From a virus, in UHGV virus genome UHGV-0136738: a stretch of DNA of 13,932 nucleotides; one strand, written 5' to 3'. The notes beneath the pieces were generated by a model. It had not been told where the DNA came from, searched no databases, and saw only the letters and a program-made list of their open reading frames with translations. A program made the translations under genes and the position numbers. Below, one piece after another: positions 5,682 through 13,688 of the stretch (positions within the stretch are counted from its first letter, which is position 1; every line of letters starts with the position of its first letter).

Positions 5682-7082
5682 TTAACCGTCCACATTAAAG
5701 TCGATACGAGTGATATATTTACTACCCCACGCGGAGTCCGCCTGCGGGATAATGGCGTAGTTATCTACGGCGGGTACGTTTACGGTAGACCCATCGGAAT
5801 AGGTAATGTCGATACTTGTCGCGCCGTTCATGGTTACTTTTGCGGATGCCGTGGTCCGGGTCACAGATGAAGAACCAGTTACTATCGGGGACGTGGCATG
5901 GCCTGATGGTTCCATTTGTATCAACGCGATATTGAACCCGCTGACACCATCCCCCGTGAAGGTGAGGGAGTTAGACGACGACAACATGTTTATCTGCGAA
6001 TAAATCAATCCGCCAGAGTCGTTAGTGTCCGCGGACATTGAAACGTGATACCACCCACCACCGAGATTACTTACAAACGACCTTGAGGTGTCGCCTGATA
6101 TCAAATCACCAGAGGCTAAGTCAACATAGGCATACTGGAAATTATCTAAAGCGGCTGGGTTGCCGATGGTTACCGCTGCTGACTGGTACTCATCTGCTTT
6201 CATAATAGCACTAATAGAGTATCTTGTTTCTTGTTCTGGGGCCTCTGGCTGGTTTATATAGTGGCTCCCTGATACCGACGTTGCGGCTAATTTAGCGGCG
6301 TAAGTTTCTTGGAATAACATCAAAGAACTCGCCGTGGTTGTTGTTCTGGTGCGTGAAAATGATGTAGATAGTAAGTTGTTAGAGTGTTCTACCACGTTGG
6401 TTGAAGCGCTTTCCGGCGGCACACGCCCAACAGCAACCCCATCGATAAACGTAAGGGGCCATTCATCGGCAGCGGACGGCACAAGATTGCCGTTTCGGTT
6501 GATGTAGTAAACCTGCGGCCCGTCATACACAATGCGGTTATCTAGTGTAGACGCCAGAAGGTTAATCGGTGGATAACCCGCGGGACCTTCGTTACTCCAG
6601 ATGCGGGGGAACGTAGTTTCGTAGTTCGCGTATATCTTAAGGAAACTGCCCAGACAGTCGCCGTAGCAACCATACAAATCCGGCAGATTGTTAATCAGGC
6701 ACTGGTTCTCAAGGTCCTGGAACGGCGATTTCTCAGCGGTTGCCGTGAAAGTAATCGTCCAGTTAATGCCATCTTCGGTGGACTCCGCGATGGTTGACGT
6801 AATGGTTACCTGGTAATCCTCGATACCCATGCCGAAGTCGTGCGCCATCCAGAAACTGGACGCGCCGCCGTCTACTTTCTCAAGAAACGCGAGGAAAGTC
6901 TGTCGTCCAAGCGCGGAGGTGATAAGCGTCACACTGACAGGGAACACGTCATAATAGGTGTCACGCCCCTGACGGACGCCACCACCCGCTAAATCAACAC
7001 TCCAGACGTTGTTACGTCTGGTCATCGAGTAGCCTTTCGACACAATAGGCTTAAGGCTACGTGGAAAAAATAAGTCACCCAT
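5682..7082 (-). CDS. minor tail protein (distal tail protein position), putative
   Basis: 466-aa ORF whose ATG at 7082..7080 overlaps the TMP stop codon as TAATG, indicating translational coupling. It is the first gene after the tape measure, where the distal tail or minor tail protein usually sits. Confidence 0.5.
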   Translation of the reverse strand: MGDLFFPRSLKPIVSKGYSMTRRNNVWSVDLAGGGVRQGRDTYYDVFPVSVTLITSALGRQTFLAFLEKVDGGASSFWMAHDFGMGIEDYQVTITSTIAESTEDGINWTITFTATAEKSPFQDLENQCLINNLPDLYGCYGDCLGSFLKIYANYETTFPRIWSNEGPAGYPPINLLASTLDNRIVYDGPQVYYINRNGNLVPSAADEWPLTFIDGVAVGRVPPESASTNVVEHSNNLLSTSFSRTRTTTTASSLMLFQETYAAKLAATSVSGSHYINQPEAPEQETRYSISAIMKADEYQSAAVTIGNPAALDNFQYAYVDLASGDLISGDTSRSFVSNLGGGWYHVSMSADTNDSGGLIYSQINMLSSSNSLTFTGDGVSGFNIALIQMEPSGHATSPIVTGSSSVTRTTASAKVTMNGATSIDITYSDGSTVNVPAVDNYAIIPQADSAWGSKYITRIDFNVDG

Positions 7083-9355
7083 TATTTGAACCCCGGCGCG
7101 TTTCTTGTGGCCTTGCGGGCCTTGCTAATCTTACTGTTACTGTTCTGCAAAGAGGCGGCGACCTGTTCCTCGATGATGATGCGCAGACGCCCTTCATCAT
7201 CCTGCTCGGTGGACACGTTGCCGATTTGCGAACTCGTGTTGTTTACGATGGTAACATTAGATGGGCCGGAAGAAGACCCGTTTTGGCCCATAATCTCTTT
7301 CATTTGTTGCGCGGTGCGTACTCGCGACGCCCCCGCGGGCATAATTACCTCAGGTTTACCGCGTTCGGCGATGGTGGAAGCCTGCCCCGCGGATAACTGG
7401 CCCCCCTGTTCACGCGCGGACCTGATAGCGGAAACCTGCGCCATACCGGCCCCAACAGCAGCGGCAGCGGCTACTGGTGCAAGGAATGGCCCAACAACCG
7501 GGATAGCAGCTGTTGACTTATACGCTTCAATAGCTGCAGTATACGTAGCGATAGTGGCCTGCACAATCGCGAACGCCTTATAAGCGCCGGATGCTTCACC
7601 TAACGCGGATCCAATGTTAGAAGCCATGTTACCAAAAGCTGTTGCCGTTGCGTCAGCACGCTTGGTTGCGTACTGCTCGTTGATGGCGCTAAGCGCAGCC
7701 TGATATTGCTTCTCGCTAATAAGACCTTGTTCTCGGTACTTATCGGCTACCGCCAGTTTCTGCTGTTCCTGAATATCCAGAAGCTCAAGCTCGGTGGCGT
7801 TCTGGCCCATAATCTGAGCCATGAAATCCTCACCTTTCTGTTGCTTATCCTGGGCTTCTTTCTGGCGTTTATCCAGTTCATCCTGCCGTTTTTGCCCTGC
7901 TTCAAGAACAATGGCGGTTTTAGCCTGTTCGTACTCTTTTAACGATAGCGCACCCTGACTGTAGAACTCTTTTGCTTTAGCCAGTTTCTGCTGCTCCTGG
8001 GCGTCAATAGCCTTTAACTCGTCATTGTTCTGACGGGCCAAAGTGTCGAGGTAATCTTGTGCCTGATTACGCAATTGTTCTGCTTTCTTAGCGGCTGCTT
8101 TTGCTGCTTTATCGTCGGTTTTCCCCGTCCCACCAGTCCCGCCTTTTTTATCAACAAGGCTGGCTAAGTCGATTTCTTGCTTCTTGCGCTCGTCATACTG
8201 CTTGCGCTGTTCCTCAATTTCTTTCTTACGCTGCTTAGACCTGTCGGTAATGGCCTGGGACTCCGCCTCTGCGCGTTTTATGCTGGCGGCATATGCGGCG
8301 TCGGCCTCCGCAGTCAGGTTTTTAAATGTGAGCGCTGCCGTTTTGCTCGGGTCAAACACGTCAGCAAGAGTCTGGCCTAACGCTACGGCATAATCATCAA
8401 TGCGCTGAAACCATGCAATAACCTCGTGGAATGTCTGCTGAATGTCAGGCAACCACTCACGGATAGCGTCAGGGATTGTGCCAAGCGAATCTGACATGTT
8501 CGCCGATTTGTCTTCTGTGTCGTACGCCAAATCATTCAAGGCGTCAGAAATAAACTTGAACGACTCATTGAACAGCGTCGCCCAATCCTGGAGTGTGGAT
8601 GCTATCTCATTAGACGCAATGGCATCGGTGAGCGCAGTTACTGCGTCTTCGGCCGCCGCGGCTTGCTCACCTACGGCGTCGCCAAAACCAGACTGCGCTA
8701 CCGCAAGAACAAGACCGTCAAATGAGTCAGCAAGGCTCGACAACTGCCCGTCAAGGGTCTTCGAGCGCGTCTCCATCGCTCCGGCGAAATCAGTATTGCC
8801 GATGTTTAGCAGGTATTTCTGAATCTCTTCGGAGTTCTTCTTGACCGTGGTCGTTACGCCACGGAACGTGAACGAAACTGTGTCCGCCTGTTGGGAAGAC
8901 TTGATGCCGAACTCTTTTAAGCGCTCGAATTCAAATGTACTGGCGTCAGCAACTGCCTCAATCATCTGGTTAAGGTCTTTACCCATCGCAGCCGCAGTGT
9001 TGCCGTAGGAGATTAACGCCTCTTTGCTGGGGTTAAGCCCGAGCGCCACGAGCTTGGTAAATCCCTCTACAGCCTGGTTAAGCCCGTATGGTGTTTCTTT
9101 AGCAAACTGTTGCAGGACGCTGAAAGCCTTTGCCGCGTTCTCGGCGCTTCCGGTCATTGTGATGAGTCCGGAGTTCAGCTTATCGAAGTTGCGCTGAGAG
9201 TCCACCAGCGCGCTGAACACCTGTTTAGCGGTTTCCAGACTGACAACGGCAGCTGCCGCCGCCCCCGCCGCCTTGGTAAGCCCGTTCAGTTGAGATGTTG
9301 TTTTATCGACGCCGGTCGAAGATACTCGTACTATCAAACTAGCGGTATCAGCCAT
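7082..9355 (-). CDS. tail tape measure protein
   Basis: Long ORF, 757 aa from ATG at 9355 (AAGGT SD about 8 nt upstream; the ORF track extends to TTG at 9370). Ala-rich N-terminus, a long charged coiled-coil centre with two internal repeats (residues about 449-484 and 526-560), a hydrophobic Ala/Gly/Val-rich segment near residues 595-650, and location directly after two chaperone ORFs. Confidence 0.85.
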   Translation of the reverse strand: MADTASLIVRVSSTGVDKTTSQLNGLTKAAGAAAAAVVSLETAKQVFSALVDSQRNFDKLNSGLITMTGSAENAAKAFSVLQQFAKETPYGLNQAVEGFTKLVALGLNPSKEALISYGNTAAAMGKDLNQMIEAVADASTFEFERLKEFGIKSSQQADTVSFTFRGVTTTVKKNSEEIQKYLLNIGNTDFAGAMETRSKTLDGQLSSLADSFDGLVLAVAQSGFGDAVGEQAAAAEDAVTALTDAIASNEIASTLQDWATLFNESFKFISDALNDLAYDTEDKSANMSDSLGTIPDAIREWLPDIQQTFHEVIAWFQRIDDYAVALGQTLADVFDPSKTAALTFKNLTAEADAAYAASIKRAEAESQAITDRSKQRKKEIEEQRKQYDERKKQEIDLASLVDKKGGTGGTGKTDDKAAKAAAKKAEQLRNQAQDYLDTLARQNNDELKAIDAQEQQKLAKAKEFYSQGALSLKEYEQAKTAIVLEAGQKRQDELDKRQKEAQDKQQKGEDFMAQIMGQNATELELLDIQEQQKLAVADKYREQGLISEKQYQAALSAINEQYATKRADATATAFGNMASNIGSALGEASGAYKAFAIVQATIATYTAAIEAYKSTAAIPVVGPFLAPVAAAAAVGAGMAQVSAIRSAREQGGQLSAGQASTIAERGKPEVIMPAGASRVRTAQQMKEIMGQNGSSSGPSNVTIVNNTSSQIGNVSTEQDDEGRLRIIIEEQVAASLQNSNSKISKARKATRNAPGFK
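7691..8026 (-). repeat. internal duplication within the tape measure gene
   Basis: Peptides ELKAIDAQEQQKLAKAKEFYSQGALSLKEYEQAK and ELELLDIQEQQKLAVADKYREQGLISEKQYQAAL lie 76 codons apart. Their DNA cores gccagtttctgctgctcctg (7980..7999) and gccagtttctgctgttcctg (7752..7771) are 19/20 identical. Confidence 0.6.
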
Positions 9356-9680
9356 GATTTCTACCTTCAAAGATTGCTTCTAGGCCCATGATAATGTCTA
9401 TCTCAAACAGGCTAAGCTGTTTCTGTGTGACGTCGAGATAGGCTTTCAGGTCTTGCCACGTTACGGATTCTCTTGCAAACAATACTACCGCGTCATCGCG
9501 CACGTGTCGCGTAAACTTAATGTCGCAATACGTTTCAAAGGTGGATATGAAAAGGGGCGGGCATTCTGGCCCACCCCGTCGCGCTGCACGTTTTTTCTTA
9601 TCGATTACACCCATTGCGATAAGCGCCTGTTCGTGACCGTCGGCTATAGAATCAAATTCTCTGATTTTATGCTTATCCAC
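9348..9680 (-). CDS. tail assembly chaperone, T-like distal ORF (possibly made as a G-T fusion by -1 frameshift)
   Basis: 110-aa ORF from GTG at 9680 with no convincing SD. The same frame is open upstream to 9731 and overlaps the end of the 139-aa ORF in the -1 frame. Its TGA at 9350..9348 lies just inside the TMP start (ATGGCTGA). Confidence 0.5.
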   Translation of the reverse strand: MDKHKIREFDSIADGHEQALIAMGVIDKKKRAARRGGPECPPLFISTFETYCDIKFTRHVRDDAVVLFARESVTWQDLKAYLDVTQKQLSLFEIDIIMGLEAIFEGRNHG

Positions 9681-9712: not shown

Positions 9713-10132
9713 CTACTTTTCCTGCAATGCTTTACGCTCAGCATTATGGAACGCTGCCACCTGAGTACCAAGCCCCTTGAACTGGTCTAGAAGCTTATTA
9801 AACGCCTCTTTGGAGAACGGTTCATCATCAAAGCTCCAGCCGTTGACGACTTCCGCAGCGAGTTGGCGGTTCAGGTCTTCTGCCAGTTCATTAATCGCCA
9901 GGTTATATTCAGTATAGTCGCCGGATTCTTTGGCGGCTTTTTCGAGTTCTTCAAAACGTGCAAGCCCGCGACGGTACGCAATAATGAAAGCGCGACCCGC
10001 TTTAACGGCGACATCGGCATCAGGGCTTACTACGTTAAGCCACTCCCCCGAGTCTTCACCGTTCGGCAGGAGAATCGGCATCTTCTTGCCTACCATCGCT
10101 TTCTCTTCAAAATAAAAATCAGAAAGTTTCAT
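9713..10132 (-). CDS. tail assembly chaperone (G-like)
   Basis: 139-aa acidic ORF immediately upstream of the T-like ORF and the tape measure gene. ATG at 10132 has SD AAAGGA about 8 nt upstream. Confidence 0.6.
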   Translation of the reverse strand: MKLSDFYFEEKAMVGKKMPILLPNGEDSGEWLNVVSPDADVAVKAGRAFIIAYRRGLARFEELEKAAKESGDYTEYNLAINELAEDLNRQLAAEVVNGWSFDDEPFSKEAFNKLLDQFKGLGTQVAAFHNAERKALQEK

Positions 10133-10239
10133 TCTTTAATCCTTTGGTTAAGAGGTTACTGGTTAAAGGAAATGCGCCAGACGGGAACCACCCGCTTTTC
10201 GTGTGCGACACTAGGCGCAAAATTATTCTAACACACTAC

Positions 10240-10299: not shown

Positions 10300-10491
10300 A
10301 TGTCCAGTTTACCAATTTCCTTAATCCTGTTTGCACTGCTCGCGTACTTTGCGCCTTTTTTAGTCGCCTATTTCCGTAACCATAAAGCAAAGCTGGCGAT
10401 ATTTATGGCTAACTTATTTCTCGGGTGGGTTCTGTTGCCGTGGGTATTCATTTTAATCTGGGCTTGCAACTCGAACGTGAAAGAGAAGTAG
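10300..10491 (+). CDS. small membrane protein resembling the superinfection-immunity (Imm_superinfect) family
   Basis: 63-aa ORF with SD GAAGGGG 7 nt upstream of ATG. Two predicted transmembrane helices. Sequence YFAPFLVAYFRNHKAKLAIFMANLFLGWVLLPWVFILIWAC fits the pattern recalled for that family (YF-P, A-x-R-x-H, IF-x-NL-x-LGW, W, LIWA). Confidence 0.5.
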   Translation: MSSLPISLILFALLAYFAPFLVAYFRNHKAKLAIFMANLFLGWVLLPWVFILIWACNSNVKEK

Positions 10492-10529
10492 GCTACTATA
10501 AGACAAATCCTAAACACGAGGAAGTAAGC

Positions 10530-11270
10530 ATGGCCCAGAAGAAAATAACCGACGAGCAGTTACAGGAAGAATTGAACGCCGGGGTGAAGAACGTAGATAT
10601 CGCCCGTAAATACGGCATCTCAGACCGCGTTATCCGAATCCGTAAAGCGAAGCTGGCTAAGAAAGGCGTAGGCCACGGGCGTGACGTAAGCCACCTTGTA
10701 CCAGACGGCTACAAGATTAAGGGTACGTCGTCTCTGGTGGACGAGTTCGGTAACACTAAGTTGCAGTGGGTTAAGACAGACACCGATGCCGAACGTCAGG
10801 TTGAGTTGATGAAAGCCGTAGTCGAAGGCATGAAGTCGGAGATTACTCCCGTTCCGCCAGTTAAGGCCGCCCGGGCTAAACGTGACGACAAGCTGCTTAA
10901 CCTGTACACCGTGTCTGATTTCCATCTCGGTATGTTAGCCTGGGCTGACGAGAGCGGCGACGACTGGGATATGAAAATCGCGGAGGACTTATTTTCACGA
11001 TGGTTTGATGCCGCGTTTCAGAAAGCACCGGATGCAGGTACGGGGGTTATTAATCTTCTTGGCGACTTAGCGCACTTCGATAGTCTTGATGCCGTTACAC
11101 CAGCAAGCGGTCATGTCCTTGACGCCGACACGCGTTACCAGAAACTTGTTCGCTATATGATTCGCATGGTACGCCGTGTTGTCGATATGGCACTGGTTAA
11201 ACATAAAACTGTTCGCTTGCTTATCGTGCAAGGGAACCACGACGAATCCGGGATGATTTGGCTGGCGTAG
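10530..11270 (+). CDS. HTH domain fused to N-terminal half of a calcineurin-like (SbcD/Mre11-type) metallophosphoesterase, ending at an in-frame TAG
   Basis: ATG at 10530 with strong SD GAGGAAG 5 nt upstream; the ORF-track GTG at 10425 overlaps the preceding gene. Residues about 17-42 (GVKNVDIARKYGISDRVIRIRKAKLA) look like a helix-turn-helix. Phosphoesterase motifs I (VSDFHLG), II (GDLAHFD) and III (GNHDE) follow. TAG at 11268..11270. Confidence 0.7.
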   Translation: MAQKKITDEQLQEELNAGVKNVDIARKYGISDRVIRIRKAKLAKKGVGHGRDVSHLVPDGYKIKGTSSLVDEFGNTKLQWVKTDTDAERQVELMKAVVEGMKSEITPVPPVKAARAKRDDKLLNLYTVSDFHLGMLAWADESGDDWDMKIAEDLFSRWFDAAFQKAPDAGTGVINLLGDLAHFDSLDAVTPASGHVLDADTRYQKLVRYMIRMVRRVVDMALVKHKTVRLLIVQGNHDESGMIWLA

Positions 11271-11660
11271 ATGTTCAGCACACTGTACGACAACGAGCCT
11301 CGTGTGTTCGTCGATACGTCGCCGGATGTGTATAAGATGGTGCAACACGGCAAAACGACGCTGTTCTTTCATCACGGGCATAAGGCACGCTTCGACGCAA
11401 TCGAGCCTGTTATGATTGCCAAGTTCCGCAAAGCGTTCGGCGAGAGCGTCTACAGCTACGCGCATGTAGGCCACCTCCACCACCAGAAGATTGTCGAAAG
11501 CCGTAACATGATTGTCGAACAACACCGCACCTTAGCCGCTAAAGACGCATACGCCTCCCGTGGCGGATGGATGTCAGGCCGCGGGGCAAATGTAATTACT
11601 TATAGCGCAGAATATGGCGAGGTCGCACGTTTAACTATTTCACCGGAGATGCTGGGATGA
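11271..11660 (+). CDS. C-terminal half of the same metallophosphoesterase (motifs IV-VI), same frame as the upstream ORF
   Basis: ATG at 11271 directly follows the TAG and is in the same frame (11271 minus 10425 is divisible by 3). Contains FFHHGH and AHVGHLHH, matching the downstream His and GHxH motifs of the fold. Ends with ATGA overlap into the next ORF. Confidence 0.65.
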   Translation: MFSTLYDNEPRVFVDTSPDVYKMVQHGKTTLFFHHGHKARFDAIEPVMIAKFRKAFGESVYSYAHVGHLHHQKIVESRNMIVEQHRTLAAKDAYASRGGWMSGRGANVITYSAEYGEVARLTISPEMLG

Positions 11661-11887
11661 CTTCAAAATACGACAGAACTATGACAAATATACACGGCAG
11701 CACGATGACTGTTGATGTCTATGATGTCCTCCGCGCTTTCGACATCCGAGACCCGGCGCTGCAGCACGCATTGAAAAAGTTGCTGTGTATGGGTCTACGC
11801 GGGCACAAAGACACAGGCACGGACTTAGAAGAGGCAATAGAAAGTCTGGAGAAGTTACGAGAGTACCGGAGTAATATTGATGAGTGA
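11657..11887 (+). CDS. hypothetical protein (76 aa)
   Basis: ORF whose start overlaps the upstream stop as ATGA, consistent with translational coupling inside the cassette. No motif recognised. Confidence 0.45.
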   Translation: MTSKYDRTMTNIHGSTMTVDVYDVLRAFDIRDPALQHALKKLLCMGLRGHKDTGTDLEEAIESLEKLREYRSNIDE

Positions 11888-11894
11888 AAGTATT

Positions 11895-12056
11895 ATGAAA
11901 ACAATATATGTAATCAGAATATACGATGAAGAATGGGATGAGTGGGTAGACATTTACGCCGTTGGAAGTAAGGAAGAGGCGTCAAAAGAAATGACAGAAA
12001 GAAGTGACCGAGGCCAGTTAACTAACTTCTATGAAATGCCATTCAAAAGTGAATAA
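11895..12056 (+). CDS. hypothetical small protein (53 aa), AT-rich
   Basis: ATG 11895 to TAA 12054..12056, translation MKTIYVIRIYDEEWDEWVDIYAVGSKEEASKEMTERSDRGQLTNFYEMPFKSE. Uses A/T-rich codons (ata, aga, aaa) unlike neighbouring genes and has a weak SD. Ends 4 nt before the terminator hairpin. Confidence 0.3.
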   Translation: MKTIYVIRIYDEEWDEWVDIYAVGSKEEASKEMTERSDRGQLTNFYEMPFKSE

Positions 12057-12060
12057 GAAA

Positions 12061-12080
12061 AAGGCCCCTTTCGGGGCCTT
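12061..12080. terminator. Rho-independent terminator hairpin, probably bidirectional
   Basis: Perfect 8-bp stem aaggcccc / ggggcctt with loop tttc, followed by agttttatg on the plus strand and preceded by gaaaaa (a T-run for the minus strand). Lies between the plus-strand cassette and the minus-strand major tail gene ending at 12085. Confidence 0.65.
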
Positions 12081-12084
12081 AGTT

Positions 12085-13269
12085 TTATGCGTAGGTGATA
12101 CGCTGAATAACGATAGACGACTGATATTGGTTGCCCGTAGCCTGGCCTTCAATAGACTGAGTGATAGACTCTGGGCCGCCAATCTCTGGTGTAACTGCGG
12201 TCAACTCCGCACGTTTCAAACTGAAAGACATAGCCCCGTTTACCCCCGCCAGAATAGAGTTAATCTCTACCTGTTGCTCGTTGATAAACTTCTGAATCAT
12301 AGCCATGTCGTACAGTTTGCCCGCGATGGAAAAGGTGTTAGCCGCACGGCCTCGTTCAACGAACGCTACGTTACTGTTGCCGAGTTCGAACTGGGCGGAA
12401 GCACCGTTATCGTTGGTGATGGTCAGCGTGTCGCAACGCAACGGCGACGTACCATCGAACACTGACACATCTACAGATGAGAACGGCTCATCGGTAAACG
12501 TCACCTGAGAGAAATCAGAGCCAGCCGGAGGTGCAGTAAGAATCTCCTGGCTCAGGCCGATGAACGGGAAGCTGCCGGTTACCATCGCGTTAACCGCCTG
12601 CTCGATAGTGAAGCCGGAAATCTCAACTCCTTTGGTAAGCATGTACGCGTCAGGGTTTCCGCACTGGCCTTTGAACCAGGTCAGGATAGAGAACGTTTTA
12701 CACGCGTTACCGGTTTCCAGCTTGTCGCCGGTTTCCAGCTTGTCGCCGGTTTTAGCGTCAGTCGTTACAGTTTCTGTGGTAAGCGTGTGCTGAATACCTG
12801 CGCCTGTTACGACAAGAGCGGAAACTTCGGTAACGATGAATGGCTTCGCGTTATCGCCTGTCAGACCGGTGAACGCGATAAGGTCGCCAACTTCAACGCC
12901 GTCGGTAATGAAGCTACCGGTTGCGCGGGTGAACGTTTTACCAACCGGCGCAACCGTAATTTCCGCGCCAGTAATCTCGACGCCAGCCTGCCACGTAGAT
13001 GTCATCGCACCTGCGAGGAAATCATCCTGACTTTTTGAGCTAAGCTCGATGGCGTATTCCCCGGTTACCTGTTTGTTACCTGTGCGGATAGACGTGGTTT
13101 CACGGCTGCCGTCCAGTTCGTTTGACGTCAGTGCGTCACGTGTTACCGCGGGAACACCGCCAGTATTGCGCAACGGCGACCATACCGGGGAAGTCGGTGT
13201 TACGCCCGGGGTAGTTTCCGCCACATAGAATTGCGCGGTATTCGCGCCCTTAAAAGGAGTTGTAGCCAT
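12085..13269 (-). CDS. major tail (tube) protein, putative
   Basis: About 394 aa from ATG at 13269 (SD AGAGG 8 nt upstream; the ORF track starts at GTG 13275). Ser/Thr/Gly/Val-rich beta-type composition. Lies after a tail-terminator-like gene, is followed by a terminator, and precedes the chaperone/TMP genes. Confidence 0.5.
   Translation of the reverse strand: MATTPFKGANTAQFYVAETTPGVTPTSPVWSPLRNTGGVPAVTRDALTSNELDGSRETTSIRTGNKQVTGEYAIELSSKSQDDFLAGAMTSTWQAGVEITGAEITVAPVGKTFTRATGSFITDGVEVGDLIAFTGLTGDNAKPFIVTEVSALVVTGAGIQHTLTTETVTTDAKTGDKLETGDKLETGNACKTFSILTWFKGQCGNPDAYMLTKGVEISGFTIEQAVNAMVTGSFPFIGLSQEILTAPPAGSDFSQVTFTDEPFSSVDVSVFDGTSPLRCDTLTITNDNGASAQFELGNSNVAFVERGRAANTFSIAGKLYDMAMIQKFINEQQVEINSILAGVNGAMSFSLKRAELTAVTPEIGGPESITQSIEGQATGNQYQSSIVIQRITYA
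12710..12753 (-). repeat. perfect 18-bp tandem duplication inside the major tail gene
   Basis: Plus-strand unit ggtttccagcttgtcgcc occurs twice in tandem (12712..12729 and 12730..12747), followed by a partial third copy ggtttt. It encodes the in-frame peptide repeat TGDKLETGDKLETG. Confidence 0.9.
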
Positions 13270-13271
13270 AT

Positions 13272-13688
13272 TCACAGCCTCTTGGTGAATGCAATAAAGT
13301 TAATCGACAATGGTCTTTTGGCCCATCCATTTTCTACAATCAGCGGCCCCAGGCTAACCGATTGCACTTCGGCGCAGATGTCGTTACGTGAAAATGACTT
13401 ACCTGCTTTGAATGCCGTGTTAAGTAAGTCTGCCATTTTATTGATTGGCGCGCTACCTTTCACCGATGCGTAGTTAATGTCTACCTGATAAACACCGGCG
13501 CGTTGCTCGGTGAAGAATAAGTCGGCCTGCTCTGTATCCGCCAGCAGCATGTAGCTAGCCAGATACGGCGTATCAGTTGACGTTGGGGCGTCGATATTTT
13601 CAAGCGCAACTTTGATGCCGTTGGTGTTTCCGAAGGCTACCAGCGGCACGTCAAACGCTTTTGTTAAATCCTCAAAGTAGCCCATCAT
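13272..13688 (-). CDS. tail terminator / tail completion protein-like, putative
   Basis: 138-aa ORF with SD AAGGTG just upstream of tandem ATG codons; its stop lies 2 nt before the major tail gene ATG. Size and position match a tail terminator; no motif recognised. Confidence 0.4.
   Translation of the reverse strand: MMGYFEDLTKAFDVPLVAFGNTNGIKVALENIDAPTSTDTPYLASYMLLADTEQADLFFTEQRAGVYQVDINYASVKGSAPINKMADLLNTAFKAGKSFSRNDICAEVQSVSLGPLIVENGWAKRPLSINFIAFTKRL

Follow-up and report, generated by a model that had tools for sequence, protein, structure and literature searches.

The gene at 10530..11660 on the plus strand of the window, which is the entire 13,932-nt stretch of DNA that was analyzed, belongs to a phage family that fuses an N-terminal helix-turn-helix (HTH) to a metallophosphoesterase (MPE) of the nuclease branch, and the copy carried here is split by an in-frame amber codon. 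The reading that we favor, with a probability of roughly 0.6, is that the family performs HTH-tethered, Rad50-independent cleavage of DNA and that the window holds an amber-inactivated copy. The locus itself is ordinary, as it is a near-identical, knocked-out version of a protein named in thousands of phage genomes. The interest lies in the family, which joins a DNA-binding domain to an Mre11-like active site that would work independently of Rad50. Few accessory enzymes are as widespread in T1-like, Dhillonvirus, Jersey/K1G-like and many Klebsiella and Vibrio phages, and the family is a concrete candidate for the T1-type host-DNA nuclease.

The window covers the tail genes of a Kagunavirus-type siphophage (Guernseyvirinae, K1G/Golestan-like), with relatives at 87–90% identity in a megablast search using the whole window. 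The region of interest is matched by 238 phage records, at up to 93% identity. The minus-strand genes of the window are those for tailspike, tail-tip, tape-measure, chaperone, tube and terminator.

An amber codon divides the gene

A Shine-Dalgarno-like sequence, GAGGAAG, can be read at 10518..10524 (+), 5 nt upstream of the ATG at 10530, and the same ATG is annotated in relatives, where the proteins are 376 aa long. The sequence-only reading had treated the gene as intact and had described a single 376-aa product. That product is absent here, because a premature TAG in frame at 11268..11270 (+; codon 247), between MPE motifs III and IV, leaves two ORFs in its place. The N-terminal ORF (10530..11270, +; 246 codons plus the TAG) encodes the HTH, a beta-hairpin/helix and MPE motifs I–III, and its exact product is P0285. 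The C-terminal ORF (11271..11660, +; 129 codons) encodes motifs IV and V, and its exact product is P0271, from 3 contigs. The codon is GAG (Glu) in relatives, including Bas74, Golestan and two metagenomic relatives, which makes the lesion a single G-to-T change. The ATG immediately after the TAG is ancestral, with relatives reading Glu-Met at this point. The window copy is a null allele in which a single base converts Glu247 to amber.

When compared to three intact relatives, the gene shows 48–100 synonymous and 4–10 non-synonymous codon differences, and just one of the non-synonymous changes lies 3’ of the stop. Ten codons, the stop included, differ between the window copy and the Bas74 orthologue. 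Judged from these codon patterns the amber mutation is recent, because the sequence 3’ of the stop still bears the signature of purifying selection. An internal stop was found in none of the 65 related IMG/VR loci, so an uninterrupted gene is the usual state and purifying selection acts on it. The 246-aa product retains the HTH, the beta-hairpin and motifs I–III, and is without the histidines of motifs IV and V and roughly one third of the fold. Because these histidines bind metal, and because so much of the fold is lost with them, the truncated product should be catalytically dead. Re-initiation at the ATG following the TAG could give rise to a C-terminal fragment.

Whether the stop reflects biology was also considered, and it is unlikely to be a sequencing or assembly error, a minority variant, or an amber codon that is read through to give full-length protein. 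One base differs from all relatives, and the exact 27-mer of the amber allele is absent from IMG/VR. The exact 246-aa and 129-aa products are recorded from three contigs, one of them a separately assembled ENA scaffold (ERZ28620746 scaffold_1404, SAMN03283289), and the three contigs may share one sample. Because family members differ at position 247, a residue inserted by a suppressor would probably be tolerated. However, the identical TAG occurs in a Logan contig (13,932 nt) and an ENA scaffold (11,932 nt) that were differently assembled, and an independent null in another Kagunavirus lineage likewise speaks against error. Read-through is opposed by the TAG acting as the true stop of the neighboring Imm and chaperone genes, and by the lack of a suppressor tRNA in the window. 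Recoding or suppression of TAG in the window genome was rejected on the same grounds, as no tRNA gene of any kind was found within the window.

The independent null is a +1 frameshift, caused by one additional A within an A5 run (CATAAAAA(A)TG) close to codon 226, in a Kagunavirus of ~40.9 kb (L009:3641-3747, Logan ERR4407115 contig). It was seen in at least 24 contigs from one run series. This separate lesion demonstrates that loss of the HTH-MPE gene does occur. Its 246-aa product, P0287 (at least 24 contigs), was considered as a further record of the amber allele and rejected, since the lesion is the +1 A and the equal length is coincidental. The frameshifted gene copy is followed closely by an inserted HNH_3 homing endonuclease. 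PHROGs 20703, 20762 and 21891 look like families of N- or C-terminal pieces, and in the T1-like phage Jk06 the gene is annotated as two parts.

The N-terminus is a helix-turn-helix followed by a conserved hairpin

Profiles and structural models place a three-helix HTH of the LuxR/FixJ and resolvase type at 10551..10661 (+; residues 8–44). With only the window sequence as query the evidence is marginal: Pfam GerE gives E = 0.0055 and does not reach its gathering score, NCBIfam FixJ gives E = 0.003, and a single-sequence search of the PDB gave a marginal FixJ match only (E = 1.5). A family alignment of 84 diverse members, at 32–49% identity, and profiles were therefore built. Individual relatives in this alignment match Sigma70_r4_2 (1.5e-9), GerE (2.4e-8), HTH_8 (2.6e-7) and HTH_1 (4e-6), and the profile of residues 1–118 matches the LuxR-type DNA-binding domains of RhlR (7.8e-5), NarL (4e-4) and GerE (9e-4) in the PDB. 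An AlphaFold2 model of the full-length protein (pLDDT 93.4, pTM 0.82) has helices at residues 8–16, 21–28 and 32–44, and a separate model of residues 1–118 has the same three helices. The modeled three-helix bundle has helix-turn-helix geometry. The relatives’ Pfam matches, the PDB profile matches and the AlphaFold2 helices bear out the proposal, made from a peptide that corresponds to residues 18–43 of the ORF starting at the ATG at 10530, that the protein begins with an HTH of the “Hin/sigma region 4 type”. The sequence-only reading had suggested examining both ends of the protein by profile and structure, and these approaches return an HTH at the N-terminus and an MPE fold at the C-terminus.

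The recognition helix (residues 32–44; DRVIRIRKAKLAK) is basic and differs among relatives, which argues against a single conserved target sequence. We infer that the HTH binds DNA and would hold the enzyme on the duplex.

The two domains are separated by a family-specific beta-hairpin and helix at 10710..10838 (+; hairpin at residues 61–85, helix at 87–103), delimited by conservation and the model. Residues G74 and W80 of the hairpin are near-invariant in the family, and both elements are modeled at a pLDDT of ~90 or more. Low model confidence is confined to residues ~45–60, a short flexible linker. An “about 80-residue linker” had been described here; a linker does exist at residues ~45–60, but the remainder of that span is the conserved and confidently modeled hairpin and helix.

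The C-terminus is a divergent metallophosphoesterase of the nuclease branch

The MPE domain extends over 10884..11654 (+; residues 119–375) and is interrupted by the stop. All five phosphoesterase motifs are encoded in the window, divided by the stop codon, and their key residues are invariant in the 84 relatives. Motif I, D130-F-H132 (10917..10925, +), falls in invariant alignment columns, and motif II is G178-D179-L-A-H182-F-D184 (11061..11081, +). Motif III, G235-N236-H237-D238 (11232..11243, +), was placed by alignment of relatives, and is followed beyond the stop by motif IV, H281-H282-G283-H284 (11370..11381, +), and motif V, G314-H315-L-H317-H318 (11469..11483, +). Nine residues (D130, H132, G178, D179, N236, H237, H282, G314 and H317) are invariant in 84/84 relatives, and a further five (H182, D184, D238, H284 and H315) are conserved in at least 90%. 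The invariance of the nine metal/phosphate ligands among relatives at 35–50% identity indicates that catalysis is under selection. A loop of the protein with the pattern TPxSGHxLDxDxR is likewise conserved.

A histidine in motif II is characteristic of Mre11. Motif II of the phage protein is of this Mre11-like “GDxxH” form and aligns with GDLLH of T. maritima Mre11, so that the active site is of the nuclease type (GDLFH-like) with the histidine supplied by H182. The family is a divergent branch of MPEs, as neither Pfam gathering score is reached by the window protein, which scores 21.7 vs 27 bits with Metallophos_2 (PF12850) and 18.3 vs 21.5 bits with Metallophos (PF00149). Only 15–18 of the 84 relatives reach an E-value of 0.01 or better with the Pfam Metallophos models. 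The solved MPEs that could be reached by sequence profile were only Mre11/SbcD and a P. putida nuclease MPE, at non-significant E-values of 0.2–3 (0.2–0.9 for Mre11); the profile alignment with these nucleases is nevertheless good over motifs I–II, which it renders as DxHLG...GDLLH.

The domain has a beta-sandwich MPE fold. Foldseek gives Mre11 (8e-9), Rv0805 (5e-8) and DP1 (7e-8) as best matches, and the closest folds to the predicted structure are the DNA nucleases PolD-DP1, Mre11 and SbcD. The domain is an MPE of the nuclease branch, although its margin over non-nuclease MPEs is modest. Sequence identity to Mre11/SbcD is only 13–18% (T. maritima Mre11, 3qg5; S. aureus SbcD, 7dog; E. coli SbcD, 6s6v). 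Unlike these enzymes, the phage protein has an N-terminal HTH and beta-hairpin/helix and no Rad50/SbcC partner, and an Mre11-type C-terminal capping domain is absent beside the MPE core. The small subunit DP1 of archaeal PolD (5ihe), a 3’-5’ proofreading exonuclease, is 11% identical. DP1 acts within the PolD heterodimer, whereas the phage has a family-A polymerase and no DP2.

The fold ranking also contains enzymes of other kinds. The third Foldseek match is the cNMP phosphodiesterase Rv0805 (4.9e-8), and GpdQ is among the top matches. Together with the position of the gene in an accessory island, where it adjoins a superinfection-immunity gene, this would fit a phosphodiesterase of small nucleotide signals (CBASS, Pycsar, type III CRISPR or cAMP), that is, an anti-defense “sponge-by-hydrolysis” rather than a DNA nuclease. 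We consider this improbable. The proteins were also searched for known defense and anti-defense families, and PADLOC returned no matches.

A second enzymatic alternative concerns lambda NinI (lambda protein phosphatase, or lambda-PP, of the PPP family), which is also a phage-encoded MPE. A distant member of the family here (35% identity; L004:6001-7487, Logan ERR15878784 contig) is found in the nin-type region of a lambdoid contig, immediately before the antiterminator gene Q, a position that in lambda is occupied by NinI, an MPE of an unrelated branch. This placement could suggest a Ser/Thr (or Tyr) protein phosphatase like NinI that is directed by its HTH to DNA-bound proteins. Such an activity is hardly credible for this protein, in which neither the PPP signature (GDxVDRG, GNHE) nor a close PPP fold of the NinI type was found. 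Another distant member is located at the end of the structural module of a 41-kb contig.

The HTH-MPE family is widespread among phages

The sequence-only reading had implied that a fusion of an HTH to a phosphoesterase is unusual. It is instead a known arrangement that annotation pipelines have already named. With the intact Bas74 orthologue as query, residues 3–375 match PHROG 704 (“DNA repair exonuclease”) over profile 1–389/390 at E = 1.1e-166. An exhaustive search using an intact, 98%-identical homologue returned 4,603 representative clusters (50% identity), 1,143 of them at E ≤ 1e-30, with members nearly all 370–420 aa long and aligned end to end. A tblastn search of 50,697 phage records finds the protein in 2,042, with at least 80% of its length covered in 1,958 of the matches. 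The hosts of the matched phages include Escherichia, Klebsiella, Salmonella, Vibrio, Campylobacter, Flavobacterium and Rhodobacter. Database names for family members include “winged helix-turn-helix domain-containing protein”, “metallophosphoesterase”, “DNA repair exonuclease”, “sigma-70 region 4 domain-containing protein” and “DNA polymerase II small subunit”. No experimental characterization of the family was found in the full-text literature, and the BASEL paper that describes Bas74 does not discuss the gene.

Many Kagunavirus genomes encode an intact 376-aa protein at 98–99% identity. The nearest relatives are Kagunavirus proteins of PHROG 704 (Escherichia phage VB_EcoS-Golestan E1_21, ATS93245.1; K1H, ADA82313.1; Bas74_0022), which have the same locus, start codon and length. 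They are 88–93% identical to the window at the DNA level and 97–99% identical at the protein level, and are likewise placed after Imm, between the chaperone and tube genes. They are named “DNA repair exonuclease / calcineurin-like phosphoesterase”, and their copies are intact (GAG) whereas that of the window is split. Coliphage T1 gp16 (YP_003929.1, “DNA repair exonuclease”) is 46% identical over 376–377 residues and shares the HTH, the beta-hairpin and the MPE motifs. Its context differs, with gp16 following dam and preceding an HNH gene and lysis genes. A further likeness, drawn from the published description, is to Gp48 of mycobacteriophage A10ZJ24 (Cluster A), a stand-alone phage MPE with five motifs. 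Motif I of Gp48 begins at residue 10 (D10G mutant), which leaves it, unlike the family here, with no N-terminal HTH.

The gene stays constant within a variable cassette

Four genes on the plus strand interrupt the minus-strand tail genes, between a chaperone gene (9713..10132, -) on one side and the tail-tube gene (12085..13275, -) on the other. The first, Imm (10300..10491, +), encodes a 63-aa superinfection immunity membrane protein (Pfam Imm_superinfect, E = 7.5e-13; PHROG 1039). The HTH-MPE gene comes next, and is followed at 11657..12056 (+) by two small genes of 76 aa (PHROG 2452) and 59 aa that are replaced by other genes in relatives. A bidirectional, GC-rich hairpin terminator at 12061..12080 lies between the cassette and the convergent tail-tube gene; it is a perfect 8-bp hairpin (AAGGCCCC-TTTC-GGGGCCTT) with T-runs on both strands. 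Among 73 related loci examined, 47 have flanking Guernseyvirinae tail genes, and in these the MPE gene is always present in the island. The variable genes of the island are Imm, the 76-aa ORF, the 59-aa ORF, a split PNKP and an HNH homing endonuclease. From the window and loci L013-L085, the cassette at 10300-12056 is a hypervariable accessory island of which the MPE is the constant member.

Because it is divergent from the tail genes and closed by the terminator, the cassette is probably expressed separately, with its transcription apart from that of the late tail genes. Early expression is suggested by gene order and a weak promoter-like site only.

The split PNKP (polynucleotide kinase/phosphatase) consists of a HAD_PNKP phosphatase (162 aa) and a 184-aa protein whose match to a P-loop is no more than weak. 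The phosphatase (Pfam E = 5.6e-20) directly follows the MPE gene in 17 of the 73 loci, the 184-aa protein is also present in 16 of these 17, and a PNK is encoded by T1 as well. The association raises the idea of end healing, in which the MPE would act as a 2’,3’-cyclic phosphodiesterase or 3’-phosphatase alongside the PNKP genes, like the MPE domain of bacterial Pnkp, in the repair of RNA or DNA cut by host nucleases. However, the window and about half of the relatives retain the MPE but have no PNKP genes, and in T1 the PNK gene is ~35 kb from gp16. The HTH suggests duplex DNA rather than RNA ends, and the Bas74 annotation includes neither an RNA nor a DNA ligase. A role in end healing therefore seems a poor prospect.

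Regulation was weighed in the same setting, as the intergenic region upstream of the cassette is near-invariant among relatives. An HTH of the LuxR/sigma-r4 type is typical of transcription factors, and one homologue is named “transcriptional regulator” in the database. The protein could on this basis be chiefly a transcription regulator with a vestigial or sensory enzyme domain, or an enzyme that represses its own operon. Both versions are very improbable given the selection on catalysis that the invariant ligands imply. In addition, a search for inverted-repeat operators around the promoter region and in the gap separating Imm from the gene found none, and the conserved intergenic block is better explained by an int-alpA-like RNA motif on the other strand. 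The earlier suggestion of a “self-regulating enzyme” is likewise unsupported, with no palindromic operator near the gene or in the conserved upstream region.

The RNA motif is a match to Rfam int-alpA (RF02996) at 10157-10221 on the minus strand of the window. It covers the full length of the model and scores 36.6 bits against a gathering score of 35.8. The block that contains it is near-invariant in five Kagunaviruses and sits just 5’ of the tail assembly chaperone gene.

A candidate DNA nuclease that would act without Rad50

In the favored reading, the HTH would hold the protein on duplex DNA while the di-metal site cuts phosphodiester bonds. The enzyme would act alone, without a Rad50/SbcC ATPase, and would be made from its own small operon, probably early in infection. 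Neither in the window nor among the 81 genes annotated in Bas74, a relative with a complete genome, was a Rad50/SbcC-like gene found. For recombination, Bas74 encodes a PD-(D/E)XK-type exonuclease of its own (PHROG 69) together with an annealing protein resembling Gp2.5. The 413-aa “exonuclease” of Bas74 was considered as a second MPE paralogue and rejected, as it belongs to PHROG 69 and is unrelated. Set against the conserved HTH, the fold ranking or the motif pattern, each alternative reading of the protein, as another enzyme or as a regulator, fits less well than DNA cleavage.

Such an enzyme could plausibly attack or process host DNA, whether to salvage nucleotides, to shut off the host or to counter its defenses, and by analogy with characterized phages the family possibly degrades host DNA. 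Gp48 of A10ZJ24 is an early mycobacteriophage phosphodiesterase that damages host genomic DNA, serves in counter-defense and is dispensable on one host (PMC12287305). Phages T1 and TLS degrade the host chromosome, and re-annotation of TLS/T1 could not name the gene responsible (PMC11447400). Phages T4 and T6 escape the Metis defense by inactivating a host-DNA endonuclease, as denA mutants (bioRxiv 10.1101/2025.11.05.686725). A more specific proposal is that the HTH-MPE family (T1 gp16 and Kagunavirus gp21-like proteins) constitutes the T1-like host-chromosome nuclease, and that null alleles are selected because they evade defenses that sense genome breakdown. Selected nulls of this kind would parallel the denA mutants of T4 and T6 that escape Metis. 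We regard this combined proposal as speculative and doubtful.

The occurrence of natural null alleles indicates that the gene is dispensable for propagation, and knockouts should therefore be feasible.

Tail assembly chaperone genes beside the cassette

A pair of tail assembly chaperone genes is located at 9348-9680 and 9713-10132 on the minus strand of the window. The downstream chaperone ORF and the tape-measure gene (7082..9370) overlap where the latter begins, and in relatives two chaperone CDSs, of 417 and 360 nt, are annotated at this place.
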